Assembly (NCBI GenBank): GCA_937888485.1
Contig: CALAQQ010000187.1
Location: 1 to 13,058, forward strand
Length of the DNA: 13,058 nt
Origin: an uncultured Clostridia bacterium
Lineage (GTDB): Bacteria; Bacillota; Clostridia; Oscillospirales; Acutalibacteraceae
Reading direction: 5' to 3'
Below the pieces are notes generated by a model. That model saw only the letters and a program-made list of their open reading frames with translations, had not been told where the DNA came from and searched no databases. The position numbers and the translations under genes were made by a program. Positions 1-13,058 of this stretch are shown piece after piece. Within the stretch, counting starts at the first letter, position 1. Every line of letters begins with the position of its first letter.

Positions 1-55
1 GAGCAGCGGTCTCCAAAACCGCGTGCCGAGGGTTCAAGTCCTTCTGCCCCTGCCA
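1..55 (+). tRNA. trnW: tRNA-Trp (anticodon CCA), 3' portion only; the 5' part is off the left edge
   Basis: Anticodon stem GCGGT(6-10)/ACCGC(18-22) around loop CTCCAAA, with anticodon CCA at 13-15. T-arm GAGGG(28-32)-TTCAAGT-CCTTC(40-44). Acceptor 3' strand TGCCCCT, discriminator G, encoded CCA at 53-55. Confidence 0.9.
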
Positions 56-167
56 GAAAAAAGTCCGGAAATCCTTGATATATAAGGGTTTGCGGGCTTT
101 TTCTTTGTCAAAAATTATTTTTCTAAATCCGCACTTTACCGTAAAATATCGTACATTTTCGAGGGCT

Positions 168-190
168 ATGTGCCCCCCAATGTGCCCCCC
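168..190. repeat. Tandem direct repeat ATGTGCCCCCC x2 (168-178, 180-190); inverted partial copy GGGGGGCA at 261-268
   Basis: Read directly. These are the only C6/G6 runs in the window, and they sit in an otherwise AT-rich non-coding stretch between the tRNA and the first terminator. Confidence 0.7.
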
Positions 191-296
191 GCAGAAGACC
201 GCTATCCCTATATATATCAACAGTTTTTATACATTTCTATGTATAAAAAACCATTATTTTGGGGGGCAATTTTTACCGCGTGCCGTATTTTAAAAC

Positions 297-335
297 AAAA
301 AAACAGAGCAGAAAGACGGTTAAATCTTTCTGCTC
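297..335 (-). terminator. Rho-independent terminator of the Fic operon; copy 1 of a perfect 39-bp direct repeat
   Basis: 11-bp perfect stem GAGCAGAAAGA(306-316)/TCTTTCTGCTC(325-335) with an 8-nt loop. A7 on the plus strand (297-303) gives a T7 tail on the minus strand. It lies 6 nt past the Fic stop codon. Confidence 0.8.
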
Positions 336-341
336 ATAATT

Positions 342-1058
342 TTATTCTTCACTGTATTCGTGCGGTCTTTCTTTATACTCTTTTACCTTATAATTACCAA
401 TGGTATCGTATTTATTCTGCTTAACGGGTTCGTTTGTGAGCATATCTTCTGTATTTTTGTGCAGTATAGCATCAAAAAAGATCCTTTCAAGATATTCATA
501 CTTTGAGTAAATACCTTGTGAACACCACACCAATGCATTGCGAACATAGTTGGAATTTGTTTTAAAAAGTTCGTGCTCAACATCAAAGCCAAGAGAGTTG
601 GCGAGGAGTACGGCAAAAACAATTACGCTTCTTGTATTGCCTTCTCTGAACGGGTGTATTTGCCATATCTTTGCAATAATTCTTACCAACCGAAAAACAA
701 CATCATCATCGTTATCTCCGGTTCTTTTCAGCTTTTTAATTTCTTTCATTGTTGAGTTTAATTCTTTTTTTATTTCTTTAGGGAAAGCATATCTTACAGT
801 ATCTCCGCCAAGAACATCTTCAGGCTTTGTCATCTGAATTGTTCTGAATTCTCCCGCCCAAGCATAGATTTGTCCGAATATTTTCCTGTGAATATCCTGC
901 AAGGTTTCGGTGTCAAATTTATCGTATTTCAGATTATATACCCCAACCATTGCAATGTTTGTTATATCGGCCTCGGCTTTCCTTAATAATTCAGAGTCCT
1001 TAATGTTTGCAAGATTTATCAGAGTTTTAACATCATCATATAAATAAGGGTCTCGCAT
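342..1058 (-). CDS. Fic/DOC-family protein (putative AMPylating toxin, class-I-like)
   Basis: 238-aa ORF carrying the Fic core motif HPFREGNTRS. GGAGG lies 9 nt upstream of the ATG, inside the end of the upstream gene, with a 3-nt intergenic gap. Confidence 0.85.
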   Translation of the reverse strand: MRDPYLYDDVKTLINLANIKDSELLRKAEADITNIAMVGVYNLKYDKFDTETLQDIHRKIFGQIYAWAGEFRTIQMTKPEDVLGGDTVRYAFPKEIKKELNSTMKEIKKLKRTGDNDDDVVFRLVRIIAKIWQIHPFREGNTRSVIVFAVLLANSLGFDVEHELFKTNSNYVRNALVWCSQGIYSKYEYLERIFFDAILHKNTEDMLTNEPVKQNKYDTIGNYKVKEYKERPHEYSEE

Positions 1059-1061
1059 CTC

Positions 1062-1586
1062 TTATACCTCCACGGGAAAGCCGTATCTCTTTAATGTGCT
1101 TTCAAAAACTGAAATGAATGTTGCTTTACCCGATAACCAGTTGTCGAGTTCTTCTTTTGCTGTTTTGCTGACGGGTACACCTTCAATCGAAGTCATTGCA
1201 TCAGCAAAGGTTACGCATCTGGTTTTGGTTAAATCGGCTATTTCGTCCATACCTGCGCTCAGCTCTAACATATCAAGTTTTCTGATAAATGATGAATCTA
1301 AAAGCTTAACGGCTTCTCTGATTTCTGAAAGACGCTTTTCAACATCACTTAACTCAGACTCATATTTTTTACGAAGCTTTAACTCTCTGTCAATCGAATC
1401 AACGCTTTCAGTTTTAATGTAAACACTTGTTATCTTGCCACGAACTCTGCATTGAAGATAGCAGTATTCGTTTCCGTTGATGTTTTTCTTTGAAATATAT
1501 CCATTGGGTAACACGGAGAGTTTATTGATAAAAAAGACCTTTTTAGCTAAAAGGTTTTTATATTCAGTTGTAATTGTTTTTAACAT
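1062..1586 (-). CDS. VbhA-like (alpha-inh) Fic antitoxin domain fused to an approximately 125-aa N-terminal region of unknown function
   Basis: The C-terminus FADAMTSIEGVPVSKTAKEELDNWLSGKATF resembles a Fic-antitoxin inhibitory helix. I place the start at Met14 of the tracked ORF (MLKTITT...) because GGAGGTG lies 7 nt upstream. The tracked ATG at 1625 lies upstream of the predicted -10 box. Confidence 0.75.
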   Translation of the reverse strand: MLKTITTEYKNLLAKKVFFINKLSVLPNGYISKKNINGNEYCYLQCRVRGKITSVYIKTESVDSIDRELKLRKKYESELSDVEKRLSEIREAVKLLDSSFIRKLDMLELSAGMDEIADLTKTRCVTFADAMTSIEGVPVSKTAKEELDNWLSGKATFISVFESTLKRYGFPVEV

Positions 1587-1613
1587 AAATACACCTCCGT
1601 ATATCTTATGTGT

Positions 1614-1642
1614 ATTATAACACATTATAACCTACAAATCAA
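1614..1642 (-). promoter_or_regulatory. Sigma-A type promoter for the antitoxin-Fic operon
   Basis: On the minus strand: TTGATT (1642-1637), a 17-nt spacer, then TGT-TATAAT (extended -10, TATAAT at 1619-1614). It lies about 28 nt upstream of the ATG at 1586. Confidence 0.6.
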
Positions 1643-1665
1643 GAAAATATTATATTTGTAGGTTA
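1628..1665. promoter_or_regulatory. 12-bp perfect inverted repeat (candidate operator) in the divergent promoter region
   Basis: TAACCTACAAAT (1628-1639) and ATTTGTAGGTTA (1654-1665) are separated by a 14-nt spacer. The left arm overlaps the -35 box and spacer of the minus-strand promoter. Confidence 0.6.
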
Positions 1666-1697
1666 ATTATTTATATCCTTAAAACCCATTATGTCTG

Positions 1698-1726
1698 TTG
1701 ATACTTTTTATTTTGTATGATAAAAT
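1698..1726 (+). promoter_or_regulatory. Sigma-A type promoter for the HipA-like operon
   Basis: TTGATA (1698-1703), a 17-nt spacer, then TGA-TAAAAT (extended -10, 1718-1726). GAGG follows 10 nt before the ATG at 1751. Confidence 0.6.
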
Positions 1727-1750
1727 AACCGAAAGAGAGGAAGTGATTAA

Positions 1751-2833
1751 ATGAACAAGAAATCATTTGAAATCTTAAGTGCCGATTCAGTTGTGGCTGT
1801 GTGGAATGACGGACAGCTTACAGTTATTAACGACGCTTTACTTCCTTTATATTTAAAACATATCAACGATTCCGAAAAGTGGCTTGCAAGCAGAGCCGCT
1901 GACAGAAAAAGAGTTAATATACGTCTTCTCAAGAAGGCACTCAGACTTGCTGAAAAAGATGATATCTCAACGGTTGTTCACGTAAACGGTGCCACAATTA
2001 CAGATAATTATTGGGTACGCTCCATTGATTCAGAGCTTACTTATGCTGACATCAAGTTTGATAATGACTACTTTTCTAACCTTGCTCTTAAGGGTACTTA
2101 TGACAGCTTTAACAGAGCCGCTAACAGCAAGCACAGCAGAACACCTGAGCTTACTAATGTAGGTAGCTTTGAAAAATGCTGGAAGCTCCGTGACGGCAAA
2201 TGGTGGATGTATAAAAAAGCTAATCATAACGAGCTGTTTTCTGAACTTTTTGTTTTTGAACTCGGTAAAGCTCTCGGAATGAATATGGCTCATTATGAGC
2301 GTGGTCAGGGCGTTATTAAATCTCTTGACTTTACTGAATCATCAAGTGTTAATTTCGAGCCTGCTTCAACATTTATGGGCAATAATGAAGATTATGAGAA
2401 TGTTGTTTCCAAGCTTCAGAAGATTTGTCCCGAAGCAATTGCGGATTACATCAGAATGATTTTTCTTGACACTATAGTTGCCAATCCCGACAGACATACA
2501 AACAATTTCGGCTTGCTCCGTGATATTCATACGGGTAAGCTTGTCGGCTTTGCCCCTAATTTTGATAACAATATGGCTCTTATCGCCAGAGGTTATCCGA
2601 AGAAATCAACATCAAAGGATTTGCTTGTTCGACTTTTCAATGAGCTTCTTAAAAATCATCCCGAGTATAAATCCTATCTTCCCAAACTTGATGAGTTAAC
2701 AGTCAAGAATATTCTTGATAAATTGAATATGAAAGTAAAAAGGCAAGAGATAATCACCTTTGTAATTGACAGATATAATATGATTGTGTCTGCAGAAAGG
2801 AGTGATAGAGATGTCACCGCAAGTTTATGCTAA
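1751..2833 (+). CDS. HipA-like serine/threonine kinase (short form, 360 aa)
   Basis: Catalytic-loop-like IVANPDRHTNNFGLL is followed by FAPNFDNN (Mg-binding, DFG-like). The upstream segment PELTNVGSFEKCWKLRDGKWWMYKK resembles the nucleotide-binding region of HipA_C-type kinases. Confidence 0.8.
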   Translation: MNKKSFEILSADSVVAVWNDGQLTVINDALLPLYLKHINDSEKWLASRAADRKRVNIRLLKKALRLAEKDDISTVVHVNGATITDNYWVRSIDSELTYADIKFDNDYFSNLALKGTYDSFNRAANSKHSRTPELTNVGSFEKCWKLRDGKWWMYKKANHNELFSELFVFELGKALGMNMAHYERGQGVIKSLDFTESSSVNFEPASTFMGNNEDYENVVSKLQKICPEAIADYIRMIFLDTIVANPDRHTNNFGLLRDIHTGKLVGFAPNFDNNMALIARGYPKKSTSKDLLVRLFNELLKNHPEYKSYLPKLDELTVKNILDKLNMKVKRQEIITFVIDRYNMIVSAERSDRDVTASLC

Positions 2834-2990
2834 AAGACTCTCGGCTATTAAGCTTGCAGATACCCTTAATAAAATCGAAGGAGCACCTGTAACGGACTAT
2901 GCTCGCCAGCTGTCTGAAAAATGGGCTAAGGGTGAAATTACAGGTCAGCAGATGAAAGAAGCTCTTATCGCTTCGCACAAGAAGGTATAG
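2811..2990 (+). CDS. 59-aa VbhA-like (alpha-inh type) mini-protein, overlapping the kinase gene by 23 nt
   Basis: AGGAG lies 8 nt upstream of the ATG at 2811. LADTLNKIEGAPVTDYARQLSEKWAKGEIT aligns with the C-terminus of the 1062-1586 product through a shared ADxxxxIEGxPVxxxAxxxxxxWxxGxxT pattern. Confidence 0.75.
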   Translation: MSPQVYAKRLSAIKLADTLNKIEGAPVTDYARQLSEKWAKGEITGQQMKEALIASHKKV

Positions 2991-3050
2991 TTTACGAACG
3001 GTTTATAATTGCAATTATGAGCCGACAAAGCACGAATATCTTGAATAAAT

Positions 3051-3090
3051 AAAAAAACAGAGCAGAAAGACGGTTAAATCTTTCTGCTCT
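3051..3090. terminator. Bidirectional terminator between the convergent HipA-like operon and int; copy 2 of the 39-bp direct repeat
   Basis: 3051-3089 is identical to 297-335. The stem extends to 12 bp here, with a T7 tail on the minus strand. It lies 8 nt past the int stop codon. Confidence 0.8.
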
Positions 3091-3097
3091 TAATCTT

Positions 3098-4264
3098 TTA
3101 TGATACCAATGTCTCCTTAATAAATTTATCCTGCAGCATAGCGGCATTTGCCTTGGATTGCTCGTCAACGTGAGTATAAATGTTAGCTGTTACACCGTAC
3201 TCACTGTGACCCATAAGCTCCTGTGCCGTTTTAATATCTACCCCCGACCATTGAAGCATTGAGCAATAGGTATGTCGTAGCTGATGTGCGGTAAACTCTT
3301 CAAAACGCTCATCTGCAAAGCAAAGCGAATCTTCGTCTCTGCCGTCAGCCGCCCTTAATGCTTCCATATAGCTCTCAAAAAGGCGTTTCCAAGCTGTTTC
3401 CGTCATTCTTCCTCCGTAAGCCTTCTGAACGATATAGGGACCCTTGGAATGCTGCTTCGCTTCAAGAAGTAAGTTGTAAAGGAAATCATTCATCGGTATT
3501 TTTCGCATACCTGCTTTTGTTTTGGTTTCCTTTAATTCAAACTGCTTGAAATCATAGGATTTGTTTACATTTATGATTCTGTTTTTGAAGTCAATATCAA
3601 ACCAAGTCAGTGCCGTTACTTCACCACGTCTGAGACCGGCAAGAAGCATTATACAAGCTGCAACCTTTGCTCTGTGTTCGGTAGTGAGAATTAACTGAAT
3701 TGTATGTTTGTTTATTGCGGTTCTTGTTTGTGTTACAGCGTTTTTAGGCGGCTTCAAATCACTGCAAGGATTGCTGAAGTTATACGCTCTTTCCTTTCGT
3801 GCAAATTCAAATACATTGGATAAAGCACGGATATACCGCTGTATGGTTTTCTTTGCCGTAGCCTTGCCTGTTGAAGGGTTACACCGATATAATTCATTGA
3901 CTGCAGGCTGAATGTGAGAGGTAAGAACATCCTTAAGCTTTGTTTTGGCAAGCAGACCGCCCTTGTAATCAACAAAATACTGCAGCCTCGCTTTCAGGGT
4001 TTTATACTCGGATTCCTTGATGTTTTCACAATCAACCTCGGTTTCCATATAATCAAGATAATGATTAATCCAACTGTAAAGGCTGTCATTGTTTTTCAGA
4101 ACATCAAGACCGTCATCAATATCATTTCGGTATTCCCTTACTCTCTTCTCAAGCTCCTTTTCTGTTTTAGCCTTCAGTTTTTTGTATTTTGGTTTTCCGT
4201 TAGCATCTGTACCGATATAAATTTTGGTACAAAAGCTACCTTTTTCTACATAAAACTTATTCAT
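3098..4264 (-). CDS. int: Tyrosine recombinase / site-specific integrase with an N-terminal arm-binding-type domain
   Basis: Catalytic signature: LRRGE (Arg), HQLRHT (HxxR), GHSEYGVTANIYTHV (His and the nucleophile Tyr). The N-terminus KIYIGTDANGKPKYKKLKAKTEKE looks like Tn916-type Int arm-binding domains. GGAGG lies 8 nt upstream. Confidence 0.95.
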   Translation of the reverse strand: MNKFYVEKGSFCTKIYIGTDANGKPKYKKLKAKTEKELEKRVREYRNDIDDGLDVLKNNDSLYSWINHYLDYMETEVDCENIKESEYKTLKARLQYFVDYKGGLLAKTKLKDVLTSHIQPAVNELYRCNPSTGKATAKKTIQRYIRALSNVFEFARKERAYNFSNPCSDLKPPKNAVTQTRTAINKHTIQLILTTEHRAKVAACIMLLAGLRRGEVTALTWFDIDFKNRIINVNKSYDFKQFELKETKTKAGMRKIPMNDFLYNLLLEAKQHSKGPYIVQKAYGGRMTETAWKRLFESYMEALRAADGRDEDSLCFADERFEEFTAHQLRHTYCSMLQWSGVDIKTAQELMGHSEYGVTANIYTHVDEQSKANAAMLQDKFIKETLVS

Positions 4265-4566: not shown

Positions 4567-5415
4567 TTACCTCGCATCTCTGTCTTTCTGACGCTGTAAT
4601 ACTCTGTAGTAATACGCACAGGACTTAATAACGAAATCTTCAAAATCTTTTTCTTTGATTTTCGGGGCAACCCTTTTCAATCGCTCCATCGGCATTTTGA
4701 AAAACTCCTGCTGATTGGGTTTGTCACGGGACATAATTTCCGTTATTACTTTTTCGTTCAGATTACCCGCCGAAGAAAGATTTTTTAGCTCAACCGCCTG
4801 AGAGTATGAGGGCGTAACCTCCATTTCATCATAAAAACGGTATATCGCACTTTGCTCCTCGGGTGTTAAATATGACAAGGCAACGGCAGGAGTAAATGCA
4901 ATTCTTCCTTCGTCCACGAGCTTTAAAATTTCGGGAATAAGAAAGGTCAGACGGATATACCGCCTGACCTGCGTTTTACTGTCGTCCGATTCACTTGCAA
5001 TAATCTCTGCCGATTCACACTTCCGACCAGCCTGGTCGGAGGTTAAGTCTGAACGGAAACCCTGTCTTTTCATTGCATCGAGTTTCATTTTGTAACCGAA
5101 AGCCTTTTCGCTCGGCAAAACCTTGTCACGCTGAAGGTTGGAATCAACATGCATAACAATAGCTTCTTCCCTTGTAAGGTCTTTGATGATTGCAGGGATA
5201 ACATCAATGTTAAGCCTTCTGCAGGCCTCAACTCTGCGGTATCCGCTTATGATTTCAAACCCGCCGTCTCTTTCACATACTACAATTGGTGAAATAACAC
5301 CGCTTTCCGATATACTCTCAAAAAGCTGGGCAAAGCCTTCATCTTCCCTGAACGCAAAGGGACTGTCTTCAAATGAAAATAAATCCTTAATTTTTACTTC
5401 TTTAACTTTAATCAT
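4567..5415 (-). CDS. ParB/Srx N-terminal-domain protein (ParB-like, element-encoded)
   Basis: GVISPIVVCERDGGFEIISGYRRVEACRRL contains the ParB-box GxRR motif. GGAGG lies upstream. Confidence 0.85.
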   Translation of the reverse strand: MIKVKEVKIKDLFSFEDSPFAFREDEGFAQLFESISESGVISPIVVCERDGGFEIISGYRRVEACRRLNIDVIPAIIKDLTREEAIVMHVDSNLQRDKVLPSEKAFGYKMKLDAMKRQGFRSDLTSDQAGRKCESAEIIASESDDSKTQVRRYIRLTFLIPEILKLVDEGRIAFTPAVALSYLTPEEQSAIYRFYDEMEVTPSYSQAVELKNLSSAGNLNEKVITEIMSRDKPNQQEFFKMPMERLKRVAPKIKEKDFEDFVIKSCAYYYRVLQRQKDRDAR

Positions 5416-5435
5416 AAATAATATTCCTCCTTAAA

Positions 5436-6821
5436 TTATCGTTCAATTTTTCTTTGATGTGTTTTGTTTGTATTGGTTCGTATTGAGTCGTAAGCATAAC
5501 GCTCATACATTTTTGAATGTTCGTTGATGTTGTCCATTTTGGTAACGACATCCTCGGCTCTGAGTTTAACTCTGTTCAGGATTTTAAGATTCTTTCTTGA
5601 AATCCTCATAGCACCGGTGAGCGTTGAGATGTGGTCACGCAGTTCCTTCTGCTGATTCTCATCACCTGAACGCACGGCCTTCTTAAATTCGTTTCTCAAA
5701 ATCTCTCTGGCTTCGTTCATTTCCTGCAAATGTTTTTCAGTATCCTTCATCAGTGCATCAAGGTCATCGTAGCTTTCAACATCGTTGTCGCAAAGCAAAT
5801 TCTGTTCCTCGCAAAGCTGGTGAAGTTTCAAAATTTCTTTTTCAAGATAACCTTCAACCTCGTTGCAATGCGGATGCTTCTTAAAAATTGACAGCCCCTT
5901 ACACAGACAAGTGTAGGAGCTGTTGATACCGCTTTTGTAATTGAAAGGATTGCCGTCGAAGAATAAAGTTTTGAGAGTTATTGAATCGTGAACAACTCTT
6001 CTTGAAGAATGCCGTCTCGTAATAATTACATCTTCAATATCGTTAATGGAATAGCCCTCGCCGATGTCGCAAAGCCATACGGGGCGTTTAAATCTTTTGT
6101 GATATACCGTCGGCTCGGGTCGGTTGAAATCAAATTGATAACCCATTTTTTCCATATTCCACACGAAAATTCTGAATGTTGAACTGCGTGAAAGACAAGT
6201 ATCAATATGAAACTTTAACAGGTCGTACTGATGGCTTTCGCCGTTTTTCTCGGCAAGGTACTGCACTCTTCTCGGTGCCTTGTGCGGCTTTTCAACAACG
6301 GATAAACCGTACTTGATACAAAGCTCATCGGATACTTTTCGCATTTCGTTATAGCTTTGCTTGCAGGCGTTGAACTTTTTTCCGTCAACCATTGAGACAC
6401 TGTTCACAACAAAATGATTATGAATGTGACCTCGGTCAAGATGGGTTGCCACAACAACCTCGTGTCGGTCTCCCCATAATTTCTGTGCAAGTTCTTTTCC
6501 GATTTCGTGAGCAAGCTCGGGTGTAACCTCGCCCGGCTTAAAGCTCTGATAGCCGTGAAAAGCAATTATCCCGTCCTGCTTTCCGTAAACCTTTTTTGTC
6601 TCCGTCATCTGGTCACGGGCAAACTCGGGGTTGCAATTTATGCCGCTTACAAAATATTGCATCTCGGTTTTTTCGCTTTCAACAGCGTAATCAATAACGT
6701 CCTTAAGCGATTGCAGTTCATCGTTGCTGTAATAATCATTGAGCGTTTTATCGGGATTCATTGCGTAATCAACAACGCTTTTCAGCGTTCCTTTAATTGA
6801 CCATATTTTAGTTACCGCCAT
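5436..6821 (-). CDS. Relaxase / mobilization nuclease (MobA/VirD2-type, MOBP-like)
   Basis: The N-terminus MAVTKIWSIKGTLKSVVDYAMNPDKT and the histidine triad THLDRGHIHNHFVVNSV fit this family. I place the start at Met42 of the tracked ORF (ATG at 6821), which overlaps the mobC stop by 14 nt. Confidence 0.9.
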   Translation of the reverse strand: MAVTKIWSIKGTLKSVVDYAMNPDKTLNDYYSNDELQSLKDVIDYAVESEKTEMQYFVSGINCNPEFARDQMTETKKVYGKQDGIIAFHGYQSFKPGEVTPELAHEIGKELAQKLWGDRHEVVVATHLDRGHIHNHFVVNSVSMVDGKKFNACKQSYNEMRKVSDELCIKYGLSVVEKPHKAPRRVQYLAEKNGESHQYDLLKFHIDTCLSRSSTFRIFVWNMEKMGYQFDFNRPEPTVYHKRFKRPVWLCDIGEGYSINDIEDVIITRRHSSRRVVHDSITLKTLFFDGNPFNYKSGINSSYTCLCKGLSIFKKHPHCNEVEGYLEKEILKLHQLCEEQNLLCDNDVESYDDLDALMKDTEKHLQEMNEAREILRNEFKKAVRSGDENQQKELRDHISTLTGAMRISRKNLKILNRVKLRAEDVVTKMDNINEHSKMYERYAYDSIRTNTNKTHQRKIER

Positions 6822-10356: not shown

Positions 10357-10647
10357 ATGAAACGATTAACCAAATATGAAAAAGAGAATATCTTTCTCTC
10401 AAATGCTGCGGAAGATTACTGGTCTGTTTACATTAACTCAAAGCCGTTTAAAAGGCGTTTTAAGGAGTATGATGACAAATATGCCGGCATTTTGATTCAC
10501 GAGCATACAGACCAATACGGAGGCGAATTATACAAAGTTCCGAAAAACTGCATATCAATCAGACTGCTCCCTCCGAGAACGGATGAACAGAAAAAGAAGG
10601 CAAAAGAACACGCAAAAAACGTCGGTCTCGGAAGAAAAGCGGGGTGA
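10357..10647 (+). CDS. Hypothetical 96-aa protein with a basic C-terminal tail
   Basis: AAGGAGG lies 5 nt upstream of the ATG, directly upstream of the rep gene. I recognise no family motif. Confidence 0.7.
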   Translation: MKRLTKYEKENIFLSNAAEDYWSVYINSKPFKRRFKEYDDKYAGILIHEHTDQYGGELYKVPKNCISIRLLPPRTDEQKKKAKEHAKNVGLGRKAG

Positions 10648-11473
10648 TAAATTGAGCGATAATTCAAGCAACAATTTCCCGTTTATTAAATTGCCGAGAG
10701 CATTGATTGACGATCCGAATTTTTCAGGATTATCTGCAGAAGCCAAACTATTATTTTCTCTTATTCTTGACAGGATGGGAGTATCGCAGATAAATGCGGA
10801 CAGATTTACGGATAAGAACGGTAATCTGTTTGTGTACTACACCATTCAAGAAATCTGCATAAAGCTTGGCTGTAGTCACGGAAAAGCGGTAAGACTTGTC
10901 AACGAACTTGAATATCATGGACTTATTTTCAAGCAAAGAAAAGGTTGCGGGAAACCGAATAAAATCATTGTTTTACCATCCGTTCTGAGAATTCTCAAAA
11001 CAGTACATAAGAAATCCGATAATGAGAATTCAGAAGTTCCCGAAAACGGAAATCAAAAGTTCTCAATATCGGAAGGAATCTATAATAACAACAGTTACAA
11101 TAACATCAGTTACCTCCATCCATCTATCGAGTATGAACGGTTGATAGAAAGCATCGAAGAACAGATTGAATATGATTGCATAAACGCAGATGCGGAAATA
11201 GTCAGGGAAATAATTCTCATTATGGCAGATGTTATTTCCGGGACAAGCTCCACCGTCAGAATCGGCGGAAGTGATTTTCCGAGAGAAGTTGTTATTTCAC
11301 GATTCAGAAAACTTACTGCAGAACACATTGAATATATTGTCGGTTGTATTGAAAGCAGTGAAACAAAAATCAAAAACATAAAAGCATATCTGATTTCAGC
11401 TTTGTTCAATGCACCGACAACAATAGCAAACTCTGTTTCGGCGGAATTTGCATATTATCAAAATTTATCTTAA
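10583..11473 (+). CDS. RepA_N-type replication initiator protein
   Basis: FPFIKLPRALIDDPNFSGLSAEAKLLFSLILDRMGVSQINADRFTDKNGNLFVYYTIQEICIKLGCSHGKAVRLVNELEYHGLIFKQRKGCGKPNKII matches the RepA_N winged-helix N-terminus of Firmicutes plasmids and ICEs. The start may instead be the in-frame TTG at 10652, which follows GGGGTG and comes just after the upstream stop. Confidence 0.85.
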   Translation: MNRKRRQKNTQKTSVSEEKRGDKLSDNSSNNFPFIKLPRALIDDPNFSGLSAEAKLLFSLILDRMGVSQINADRFTDKNGNLFVYYTIQEICIKLGCSHGKAVRLVNELEYHGLIFKQRKGCGKPNKIIVLPSVLRILKTVHKKSDNENSEVPENGNQKFSISEGIYNNNSYNNISYLHPSIEYERLIESIEEQIEYDCINADAEIVREIILIMADVISGTSSTVRIGGSDFPREVVISRFRKLTAEHIEYIVGCIESSETKIKNIKAYLISALFNAPTTIANSVSAEFAYYQNLS

Positions 11474-11483
11474 GGAGAAACAA

Positions 11484-11669
11484 ATGAATAATACTTTCAG
11501 AGATTACCCCGACGTTGTGAGCATTGAAGAACTTCAGGATATGCTTCACATCGGCAGAAACGCCGCCTATGACATTGTCAAGGAAGGCAAAATCAAAACT
11601 ATCAGAATCGGCAAACGATATATCATTCCGAAAACAAGCGTTATAAATTTTCTCGAAACAGCGTCTTAA
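11484..11669 (+). CDS. xis: Excisionase-family helix-turn-helix protein
   Basis: VSIEELQDMLHIGRNAAYDIVKEGKIKTIRIGKRYIIPK fits the family. AAGGAG lies 6 nt upstream of the internal ATG at 11484. The tracked start at 11448 overlaps rep and has no SD. Confidence 0.85.
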   Translation: MNNTFRDYPDVVSIEELQDMLHIGRNAAYDIVKEGKIKTIRIGKRYIIPKTSVINFLETAS

Positions 11670-11672
11670 CTC

Positions 11673-11700
11673 TTGTAAACAGTAAAATATTATGTATAAT
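11673..11700 (+). promoter_or_regulatory. Possible internal promoter ahead of int
   Basis: TTGTAA (11673-11678), a 16-nt spacer, then TATAAT (11695-11700). Confidence 0.35.
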
Positions 11701-11747
11701 TTTAATTACGGAATGATTGACTGTTTTCCAATCAGAAAGGAGTATCA

Positions 11748-13058
11748 ATGGTAACAGGCAATCTGCAAATCAAAGACGGCAAGTATTATGCCGTTGTCAA
11801 TCTCAGAGATGAAACCGGCAAAAGAAAGCAGAAATGGGTCAGCACGGGGCTGTCTGTCAGAGGCAACAAGAAAAATGCCGAGCAATTCCTTAGTCAGGAG
11901 CTTGAAAAATGGAACTACCATAACGGCGTTTATTACGGTATTTCGGTTGCGGAATACTTTGAAATATGGCTGACAGAGATTGAAAAAGAAGTCAGACCGA
12001 ACACCTTCCGTTCCTATAAGGGTAATATGACGAATCACATTATTCCGTATTTCAGGAACAAGAAGATTCAGCTTCAGTCAATCAAGCCAATCGACCTCGA
12101 AGATTACTATTTCTCGCTTCTCAAACCCGAAAGCAACCTTGAAAACGGAGCGGCACTTTCCGCTACAACAATAAGGCACCACCATCAGAACATAAGCAAG
12201 GCACTTGCCGATGCGGTCAGAAAAGGATATATTCCGCTCAATCCCGCAAGCTCTGCAAGATTGCCGAAGAAAGAGAAATACAAAGCTGAATTTCTCAACC
12301 ACGAACAGCTTGATGAACTTATTTCTCTGTTCAAAGGAAGTCCCGTTGAATTGCCCGTCAGACTATGTGCAATTTACGGTTTCCGCAGAAGTGAGGTGCT
12401 GGGTCTTAAATGGAAGAACGTCGATTTCATCAACCGCACAATAACAATAAGCGAAACACTTCAGCAGCACACAGGCGGCAATTACACCGACCATCCCAAG
12501 ACAGAAAGCAGTTACAGAACTCTGCCGTTAAACAATACGGCTTATGACCTTCTGAAAGAACAGAAGAAGCTTCAGGATGAACGCAAACTGCTTATGGGCA
12601 ATTATTACATATATAATGACTATGTCTGCACCTGGGGTAACGGAGAAGTAATTGCACCGAATTATCTGACACGCACTTTTCACTCGGTCATTCAGAACAG
12701 TACACTTCCGCAGATAAGACTGCATGATTTACGCCACAGCGTTGCGAGCAATCTTCTCAATCTCGGATTTTCGGTTGTTCAGGTTCAGGAATGGCTCGGT
12801 CACGGAAGTGCATCAACAACACTTAATTTCTATGCTCACGTTGATAAGAGTTCAAAAATCAGCATCGCAGACACTCTTGACAAATTAAATTCGGAACAAG
12901 AGAAAAAAGAGGACAAAGTGTTAGAAAAAGTGTTTGAAGAAAAGACCCTTTCAGAAACAAAAAAAGACCCCGTAAAAGGGTCGGAAAAAGGCCTGAAAAA
13001 AGCAAAAATCAGCACAAAAGTTGTGCCGATAAAAAAACAAAGCCTGAAAAAGTGTTAG
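11748..13058 (+). CDS. int: Tyrosine recombinase / integrase (Tn916-Int-like architecture) with a long Lys/Glu-rich C-terminal extension
   Basis: The N-terminal arm-binding-type domain reads LQIKDGKYYAVVNLRDETGKRKQKWVSTG. Catalytic residues: FRRSEV (Arg), HDLRHS (HxxR), GHGSASTTLNFYAHV (Tyr codon at 12831-12833). AAGGAG lies 7 nt upstream. The stop codon is the last 3 nt of the window. Confidence 0.95.
   Translation: MVTGNLQIKDGKYYAVVNLRDETGKRKQKWVSTGLSVRGNKKNAEQFLSQELEKWNYHNGVYYGISVAEYFEIWLTEIEKEVRPNTFRSYKGNMTNHIIPYFRNKKIQLQSIKPIDLEDYYFSLLKPESNLENGAALSATTIRHHHQNISKALADAVRKGYIPLNPASSARLPKKEKYKAEFLNHEQLDELISLFKGSPVELPVRLCAIYGFRRSEVLGLKWKNVDFINRTITISETLQQHTGGNYTDHPKTESSYRTLPLNNTAYDLLKEQKKLQDERKLLMGNYYIYNDYVCTWGNGEVIAPNYLTRTFHSVIQNSTLPQIRLHDLRHSVASNLLNLGFSVVQVQEWLGHGSASTTLNFYAHVDKSSKISIADTLDKLNSEQEKKEDKVLEKVFEEKTLSETKKDPVKGSEKGLKKAKISTKVVPIKKQSLKKC
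12959..12982 (-). terminator. Minus-strand terminator-like hairpin inside the int tail
   Basis: On the plus strand, A7 (12959-12965) precedes GACCC-CGTAAAA-GGGTC. Read on the minus strand this is a GC stem followed by T7. Confidence 0.35.

Follow-up and report, generated by a model that had tools for sequence, protein, structure and literature searches.

In class I Fic modules (VbhT/VbhA and FicT/FicA, with Bartonella VbhTA, Escherichia coli YhfG-Fic and BiaA-Bep as examples) the antitoxin gene lies immediately upstream of fic. Kinases of the HipA family have a cognate partner in hipBA and hipBST and are monocistronic in HipH/YjjJ; the HipA-like Ser/Thr kinase CtkA (JHP0940) of Helicobacter pylori also stands alone, and sits in a mobile plasticity zone. 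Ten gene organisations have been described for HipA homologues, none with a VbhA-type partner (PMC8262856), and a literature search on HipA together with VbhA returned only general reviews and a genome survey. Genes of both kinds meet in a stretch of 13,058 nucleotides (nt) from an uncultured Clostridia bacterium of the Acutalibacteraceae (assembly GCA_937888485.1, contig CALAQQ010000187.1), hereafter the window, where positions 292-3097 form the slot for variable cargo of an integrative mobilizable element, with tRNA-Trp/attL on one side and the integrase on the other.

The slot holds a fic gene preceded by the gene of a 174-amino acid (aa) protein, P174, and, on the other strand, a HipA-like kinase gene whose 3' end is overlapped by a gene of 59 aa. 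An earlier note on this DNA, made from its letters alone, had listed the four open reading frames (ORFs) with their motifs, spacings and 23-nt overlap, all of which are found as claimed in the ORF list and in the sequence. The note had proposed that a VbhA fold was recruited as antitoxin of a HipA-like kinase, or that the four genes form one interlocked circuit. A different reading is probable, namely that three cargo pieces were acquired independently: a P174-Fic module, a solo kinase, and an orphan vbhA kept as immunity. The architecture, the homologies, the assortment of the parts, a toxin gene scar and purifying selection are observed directly; the biochemical activities and the anti-addiction role proposed below are inferred. 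The features concerned are these:

342..1058, minus strand: Fic toxin candidate, 238 aa; Pfam Fic 54.5 bits (cut-off 24); motif HPFREGNTRS
1062..1586, minus strand: P174, putative antitoxin of 174 aa; stop 3 nt before the Fic start; ribosome-binding site GGAGGTG before the ATG at 1586
1751..2833, plus strand: stand-alone Ser/Thr kinase, 360 aa; motifs NPDRHTNNFG and APNFDNN; Pfam HipA_C 32.7 bits, just above the cut-off of 30.5
2786..2794, no strand: recombination junction; kinase-derived DNA to ~2785, vbhA leader (ribosome-binding site AAAGGAG) from ~2795
2811..2990, plus strand: orphan vbhA, 59 aa; Pfam VbhA (PF18495) 36.3 bits (cut-off 25.9); preceded by AAAGGAG
2994..3048, plus strand: scar of a second fic gene, fic', 55 nt; from alignment with the fic' pseudogene of locus L008

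The Pfam scores of the Fic, HipA_C and VbhA (59-aa) domains lie above their cut-offs and bear out the domain assignments of the note, the VbhA similarity of the 59-aa ORF being detected by the profile hidden Markov model.

Comparison with described systems

As in class I Fic modules, the antitoxin gene in the window lies directly upstream of fic, here with a gap of 3 nt, and the antitoxin helix has an invariant Glu-Gly; the 59-aa protein passes Pfam VbhA, VbhT is the closest relative of the Fic among solved structures, and BiaA is the top match of the 59-aa profile. Unlike in those modules, the Fic motif is HPFREGNTR(S/T)(V/I/T)(I/V), and the residue four positions before the Glu is Leu or Met, not Ser or Thr. 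P174 differs from VbhA in being three times longer, a DUF6788-like N-terminal domain and a long helix having been added.

The kinase shares with the HipA family the HipA_C core, the catalytic Asp/His/Asn, the Mg-binding Asp, the Gly-rich loop and a fold match over the full length. Unlike hipBA and hipBST kinases it lacks a cognate partner, and its likeness to HipA is detectable by structure only. Monocistronic HipH/YjjJ is its nearest organisational analogue, although some members of the window-kinase family, unlike HipH, bear a DUF6788-like N-terminal domain in place of the helix-turn-helix (HTH). The kinase resembles CtkA as a single gene without an adjacent antitoxin, and departs from it in sequence (~17% identity), in having a full HipA-like N-terminal region, in its gut Clostridia host and in showing no sign of secretion.

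The 59-aa gene recalls the orphan antitoxins of pVbh (PMC5675462), being a toxin-less antitoxin on a mobile element whose related competitors have the intact module. It differs from earlier cases of orphan antitoxins in that the junction, the scar and at least three toxin lesions are visible and selection on the orphan is measurable, while its function is putative.

Origin of the 59-aa gene

Kinase genes of 348 and of 360 aa are found in elements related to that of the window; the loci compared throughout, designated by L numbers, are all metagenome or metagenome-assembled genome (MAG) assemblies. The two forms are collinear to ~2785, where 15 codons of vbhA leader follow instead of the last 3 kinase codons, and residues 346-360 of the window kinase are this junction-derived tail. 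The 59-aa ORF overlaps the 3' end of the kinase gene by 23 nt, and this overlap is a recombination junction. A chimaera of assembly was considered for the kinase-vbhA junction and rejected as unlikely, because at least nine independent assemblies share it (the window, L001, L005, L006, L008, L090, L091, L100 and L101). The native promoter-like sequence of vbhA, TTGTAA-N17-TGATACAAT, present in kinase-less elements (L089), is missing from the window; because vbhA lost its own promoter at the junction, its expression is now tied to the kinase transcript.

What follows the 59-aa gene is the remnant of fic'. The scar consists of the former fic' start (ATG changed to ACG) with ~6 codons, and then of the last 12 codons and the stop (..NYEPTKHEYLE*), ~655 nt having been deleted internally. 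Its 5' piece matches fic' at 17/21 positions (manual count of the sequences), and its 3' piece shows 2 mismatches over ~50 aligned nt, the last codons and the stop included. Nested, larger deletions of the same scar are found in L090, L091 and then L006, and the fic' of L008 carries an independent lesion, an in-frame TGA.

Homologues of the 59-aa protein (69-97% identical) are followed in at least 23 places by a Fic of 220-236 aa (mostly 236), after a gap of ~3 nt, or with an overlap of 4 nt in L095 and L096. P0349, a protein identical in sequence to the 59-aa protein, is the upstream partner of the intact Fic' in kinase-less elements. The 59-aa gene is, by these sequence comparisons, the leftover antitoxin of a deleted second Fic, fic'. 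The earlier note, in its circuit model, had assigned the 59-aa protein to the resident Fic (342..1058); the cognate toxin, however, is the deleted fic' product, 33% identical to the resident Fic, and the resident Fic is only a hypothetical target. Searched against the PDB, the profile of the 59-aa family has BiaA as its top match (E 0.08), the invariant Glu-Gly being aligned to the IEG of BiaA; the 59-aa protein alone gave no significant match among PDB sequences. Identity to the C-terminal domain of P174 is ~35% over 31 aa (manual count).

The locus probably arose as follows. The kinase gene would have received, at its 3' end, a vbhA-fic' module of a sibling element, an event that would have exchanged 3 kinase codons for 15 new ones, removed the vbhA promoter and created the 23-nt overlap. 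The destruction of fic' would have come later, leaving the 55-nt scar, and the orphan antitoxin would now be co-transcribed with the kinase.

Assortment of parts among sibling elements

Integrases across the sibling elements are 88-99.5% identical to that of the window, and the cargo varies from one element to the next. L010-L012 consist of tRNA, kinase (348 aa) and integrase, and nothing else. Fic, P174 and kinase occur without the 59-aa gene in L007 and L009, the kinase (360 aa) and the 59-aa gene without Fic/P174 in L006 and L100. In L008 the kinase and the 59-aa gene are followed, 3 nt on, by fic' with the in-frame TGA. The 59-aa gene, an intact 236-aa fic' and the integrase are found without kinase in L089, L092-L094, L158 and L159, and both additions, Fic/P174 and the 59-aa gene, accompany the kinase in the window, L001, L005, L090 and L091. 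DNA alignments show the Fic/P174 cassette (~292-1690) standing in place of ~110 base pairs of the other variants. The parts assort independently, and the four genes are three unrelated cargo pieces stacked at one end of the element.

The state of fic' follows the presence of the kinase. The gene is intact in all 23 kinase-less contexts examined (L089, L092-L099, L150-L163), and is inactivated wherever the kinase has been joined upstream of vbhA (the window, L001, L005, L006, L008, L090, L091 and L100), by a nonsense codon, by the ~655-nt deletion, or by the nested larger deletions. The loss of the vbhA promoter at the junction may have made the fic' toxin untenable.

The element family is mosaic. 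The integrase of the window is 99.5% identical to that of L089, which has vbhA-fic' and no kinase. The kinase-vbhA junction of the window is also that of L005, L006 and L100, but identity to their integrases is only 88-89%. The vbhA genes of the window and of L089 differ by 16 synonymous differences.

Selection on the orphan gene

Substitutions were counted among vbhA copies sharing the same fic' deletion, the comparison being limited to these; ~77% of changes would be nonsynonymous by chance. Synonymous to nonsynonymous changes are 9:1 between the window and L005, 11:3 between the window and L001, and 11:0 between L005 and L006 (binomial p ~1e-5 per single pair, the pairs not being independent; pN/pS, the ratio of nonsynonymous to synonymous change, ~0.03). 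The adjacent scar meanwhile gains substitutions and further deletions (L090, L091, L006), the vbhA reading frame and ribosome-binding site being intact in all nine copies. These figures indicate that the orphan vbhA is kept by purifying selection. A functionless relic of a decayed toxin-antitoxin module, not yet lost, would suit a gene whose toxin is gone and whose own promoter has been lost, and the decay of such modules commonly leaves orphan antitoxins; it is nevertheless unlikely here, given the strong synonymous excess among copies with the same deletion and the nine intact frames and ribosome-binding sites next to an eroding scar.

An anti-addiction function has already been suggested for the orphan antitoxins of pVbh, a FicTA-bearing plasmid (PMC5675462), and the setting of the 59-aa gene is that of such an orphan: vbhA is intact, its cognate toxin is absent in cis, and intact vbhA-fic' resides in siblings (99.5%-identical integrase). 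By analogy, the orphan vbhA most likely provides immunity, or anti-addiction, against the Fic' of abundant sibling elements competing for the same att site. Immunity is the most economical reading because intact vbhA-fic' is carried by siblings that have the same att arm and integrases almost identical to that of the window. A role limited to the resident Fic is unlikely, since vbhA is kept in L006 and L100 without a resident Fic. The locus is a well-resolved natural series of toxin-antitoxin decay, with the orphan antitoxin still selected, and the anti-addiction idea is directly testable between siblings.

The kinase

Beyond HipA_C, no Pfam match to couple_hipA or HipA_N was found in the kinase at E<=1. 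The AlphaFold2 (AF2) model has a predicted local distance difference test (pLDDT) score of 94.4, falling below 50 only at residues 355-360. In Foldseek the model matches full-length HipA over ~440 columns, with a template modelling (TM) score TMq of 0.62-0.69, and CtkA with a TM of 0.59 normalised to CtkA. The family profile, searched against the PDB, has CtkA of H. pylori as best match (E 1e-12), HipT reaching 1e-3. The alignment of 34 diverse homologues shows R248 to be invariant, as are G138 and K142 in the Gly-rich loop. At least 90% of the homologues conserve D247, H249, N252 and D272, catalytic or Mg-binding, and, in the Gly-rich loop, E141. The degeneration of the catalytic residues, considered in the earlier note, is not seen in this alignment. 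The kinase is assigned, on sequence and structural grounds, to the HipA superfamily, nearest to CtkA and with intact catalytic residues; it is a solo gene.

The family is large and uncharacterised (2346 hits, 2267 cluster representatives, 527 species genomes), made up of partner-less CtkA-like kinases carried on gut Clostridia mobile elements, its hosts being mainly MAGs of Acutalibacteraceae, Oscillospiraceae and other Clostridia from animal guts. Clustering of all ORFs within 3 kilobases (kb) in 84 loci revealed no conserved kinase partner. The window holds no HipB HTH, HipS, HIRAN, Stl-like or resolvase-like partner, in line with the earlier note, which had seen neither an HTH nor a HipS-like gene next to the kinase. 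In a profile search a VbhA-like ORF was found directly downstream of the kinase in 4/84 loci only, all of one junction lineage at least 90% identical. The kinase would be the ancestral cargo of the element family, with its own promoter and no dedicated partner gene; as a guess by analogy with HipA and HipT, it could limit itself by autophosphorylation.

Two arrangements were observed on the side. Seven related kinase loci (L022, L025, L040, L045, L056, L071 and L077) are hipBA-like, an XRE-type HTH gene of 70-100 aa lying directly upstream on the same strand. L082 has a 77-aa stand-alone homologue of the P174 C-terminal domain (4686-4919, plus strand), with its own promoter and ribosome-binding site, 78 nt upstream of a 67-68%-identical kinase (4998-6032, plus strand); no Fic is present in this 11-kb locus.

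The proposal that the 59-aa protein, with its VbhA fold, was recruited as antitoxin or regulator of the HipA-like kinase, the two being coupled through the 23-nt overlap, draws on several facts: the 59-aa gene overlaps the kinase 3' end and relies on its promoter, purifying selection acts on it even where no Fic is near (L006, L100), every orphan copy is kinase-linked, and in L082 another VbhA-like small gene lies just upstream of a kinase without Fic. Yet kinases 90-94% identical, residing in the same element, do without the 59-aa gene (L007, L009-L012), and the gene is found at 4 of the 84 kinase loci only; the identical protein P0349 partners intact Fic' in kinase-less elements, and juxtaposition to the kinase went with no adaptation of sequence; the overlap arose at a recombination junction, downstream of which lies a fic' scar; and none of 48 loci with a P174 C-domain-like sequence has a kinase. 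Recruitment to the kinase is extremely unlikely on this evidence. The pairing was the point on which the earlier note had itself looked to a neighbourhood survey, and the survey went against it, the pair being confined to one lineage. The headline claim of a VbhA-fold antitoxin for a HipA-like kinase dissolves. In mobile-element cargo slots, adjacent and even overlapping genes can mark a recombination scar instead of a functional coupling.

The Fic toxin candidate and its putative two-domain antitoxin

Among solved structures VbhT is closest to the resident Fic (E 1e-13). The canonical Fic motif is HxFx(D/E)GN(G/K)RxxR. The active-site motif of the resident Fic, HPFREGNTRSVI (window 600-640), is non-canonical, with Thr for Gly/Lys and Ile for the second Arg, and in the motif alignment a complete canonical motif is present neither in the resident Fic lineage nor in the fic' lineage. 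HPFREGNTR(S/T)(V/I/T)(I/V) is common to both lineages, which are 33% identical to each other (window; L089:2683-3393; L085-L088). A C-terminal tail of the form KY..Y...HEY is also common to the two. A literature search found no paper on a GNTR-type Fic motif with adenylylation. In VbhT/VbhA the second Arg of the motif pairs with the inhibitory Glu; because both Fic lineages are without it, the VbhA-type mode of inhibition and the reaction catalysed are extrapolations.

P174 begins with a DUF6788-like beta-sheet domain, continues as a long helix and ends in a VbhA-like domain with E135-G136. An upstream start, giving a 187-aa ORF, lies at or before the predicted -10 box. The C-terminus scores 15.4 bits against Pfam VbhA (E 0.019), below threshold; profile searches of 9866 ORFs nevertheless link the two families in both directions, from the 59-aa family to P174 with E 2e-6 and from the P174 C-domain back to the 59-aa protein with E 1e-5. 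In the AF2 model (pLDDT 90.5) the C-domain matches the Fic antitoxin BiaA (5eu0_B) with a local TM of 0.68 over 50 columns and a root-mean-square deviation of 2.4 A, the Foldseek E-value being poor. These reciprocal profile matches and the local match to BiaA sustain the kinship of the 174-aa C-terminus to Fic antitoxins claimed in the earlier note, Pfam VbhA giving 15.4 bits only. Full-length P174 gave no significant global match in Foldseek, and its profile no significant match among PDB sequences; the N-domain gave low-probability Foldseek matches to integrase arm-binding domains and to the CarD N-domain. In alignments the Glu-Gly is invariant in both the P174 and the 59-aa families. Position -4 of the inhibitory motif, canonically (S/T)xxxE(G/N), is Met in P174 and Leu in the 59-aa family, which has an invariant Thr at -5, as the earlier note had cautioned for the hydrophobic residue.

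In 4/4 look-ups a Fic of 237-239 aa comes directly after the homologue of P174 (44-66% identical). Scanning metagenome contigs for a P174 C-domain pattern yielded 48 loci; 44 have a P174-like ORF with Fic directly behind it, the remaining 4 are cut off by contig ends, and the kinase is present in 0/48. P174 and Fic are predicted, on these grounds, to be a genuine conserved antitoxin-toxin pair of class I type, as had been suggested for the 174-aa protein. The C-terminal VbhA-like domain of P174 would put Glu135 into the Fic nucleotide site, by analogy with VbhA/VbhT, and the N-terminal beta-sheet domain with the long helix might serve in dimerisation, or in DNA binding for autoregulation, a role weakly inferred. 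The two-domain architecture appears to be undescribed, an architectural variant of class I Fic modules; a literature search found no paper on DUF6788.

The P174 N-domain (LPxGYISKKxIxGKxYxYLQ) is also fused to the N-terminus of kinase homologues of ~430-460 aa (P0145, P0150, P0127; BLASTP E 3e-11), and a class-II-like Fic at L139:1-814 (minus strand) bears it too. The presence of a DUF6788-like domain on Fic antitoxins, HipA/CtkA-like kinases and a class-II-like Fic points to a common regulatory module of toxin systems. It looks like a promiscuous regulatory or DNA-binding module, DNA binding itself being a guess.

A four-gene circuit, in which the 59-aa protein acts in trans as a spare inhibitor of the resident Fic (342..1058) and is supplied from the kinase transcript, would accord with the homology between the 59-aa protein and the P174 C-domain (profile E ~1e-6 to 1e-5), both with the invariant Glu-Gly, with the unusual HPFREGNTR(S/T) motif of both Fic lineages, and with the recurrence of the combined arrangement in the window, L001, L005, L090 and L091. 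It is made improbable by the occurrence of its parts in every combination, by the self-sufficiency of P174-Fic without the 59-aa gene (the 4/4 look-ups and 44/48 loci), by the intact 59-aa gene of L006 and L100, where there is no resident Fic, and by the identity of only 33% between the resident Fic and the cognate Fic'. The circuit of the earlier note survives in part: the 59-aa protein would be, as proposed there, an inhibitor of a Fic and not of the kinase, expressed on the kinase transcript, but the parts assort independently and do not interlock.

Points weighing against independent cargo

Several observations weigh against three independent pieces with vbhA as immunity gene. Part of the synonymous divergence of vbhA could derive from gene conversion with intact alleles, and not from evolution after orphaning. 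Every orphan vbhA belongs to one kinase-junction lineage, in which retention related to the kinase and retention for immunity are genetically inseparable. Damage to fic', by at least three lesions, is found only behind the kinase, a pattern that the reading accounts for only in part. In L082 a VbhA-like gene and a member of the kinase family have come to lie together a second time, independently, and some kinases of the family carry what is by alignment a fused P174 N-domain. The VbhA-type inhibition is moreover extrapolated by analogy, the second Arg of the canonical motif being absent in both Fic lineages.

Selection of orphan vbhA only behind the kinase, the loss of fic' there by at least three lesions, the L082 pair and the kinases fused to the P174 N-domain could together be taken to mean that VbhA-like and DUF6788-like domains are genuine regulators of the CtkA/HipA-like kinase family. 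If this were true, one antitoxin fold would control two unrelated nucleotide-using toxins, Fic and kinase. We regard such regulation as very unlikely, and the L082 juxtaposition and the kinase-bound orphan copies are read as stacking and decay in cargo slots.

The surrounding element

The cargo slot is framed by the following features:

1..55, plus strand: 3' part of tRNA-Trp(CCA); Rfam tRNA 31.3 bits, 5' end missing; integration site of the element
58..291, no strand: conserved attL-proximal arm; from alignments with L006, L007, L011 and L012
293..343, no strand: direct repeat copy 1, 51 nt; bidirectional hairpin terminator, stem 306-335, just downstream of Fic
1614..1642, minus strand: promoter-like site for the P174-Fic operon; TTGATT-17-TATAAT with TG extension; consensus match only
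1698..1726, plus strand: promoter-like site for the kinase; TTGATA-17-TAAAAT; present in every element variant, whether the Fic cassette is there or not
3047..3097, no strand: direct repeat copy 2, 51 nt; bidirectional terminator, stem 3059-3090, between cargo slot and integrase
3098..4264, minus strand: tyrosine integrase; Pfam

At the homologous place L011 has complete tRNA-Met and tRNA-Trp; no second copy of the tRNA 3' end, which would mark attR, was found anywhere in the window. The att arm (58..291) aligns to that of L089 with a local score of 218/234, and the variable slot begins directly after ...GCCGTATTTT (291). Tandem ATGTGCCCCCC motifs at ~168-190 in the att-proximal arm, 2 copies in the window and 3 in L012, may be candidate integrase arm-type binding sites. 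A 72-aa ORF at 75..293 is probably no gene: it lies in the conserved att arm, is of low complexity, and its C-terminus is not conserved as protein across loci.

A repeat search and a terminator scan showed that the two 51-nt copies (293-343 and 3047-3097) are 94% identical and bracket all four genes. Copy 1 bounds the Fic/174-aa cassette on the left, and copy 2 is the native terminator between cargo slot and integrase. The Fic/P174 cassette bears a direct, not an inverted, copy of the terminator. In the intergenic region 1587-1750 promoter-like sites point outward both ways.

In PADLOC the Fic is matched as PDC-S04 (169.7 bits) and the kinase as PDC-M03A, both defence candidates, with no match for the 174-aa or 59-aa proteins; NCBIfam gave no match for the kinase, P174 or the 59-aa protein. 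Past the integrase, up to ~7224, Pfam identifies an HTH_17 excisionase-like gene, ParB_N, a MobA/VirD2 relaxase and a NikA/MobC-like gene; with the integrase, these genes amount to an integrative mobilizable element. Farther on, a 529-aa protein encoded at 8158-9747 matches GH5 cellulases weakly, and 10357-13058 is occupied by a second mobile-element module, made up of a RepA_N/DUF6017 replication initiator, a small HTH gene and a second tyrosine integrase (11748..13058).

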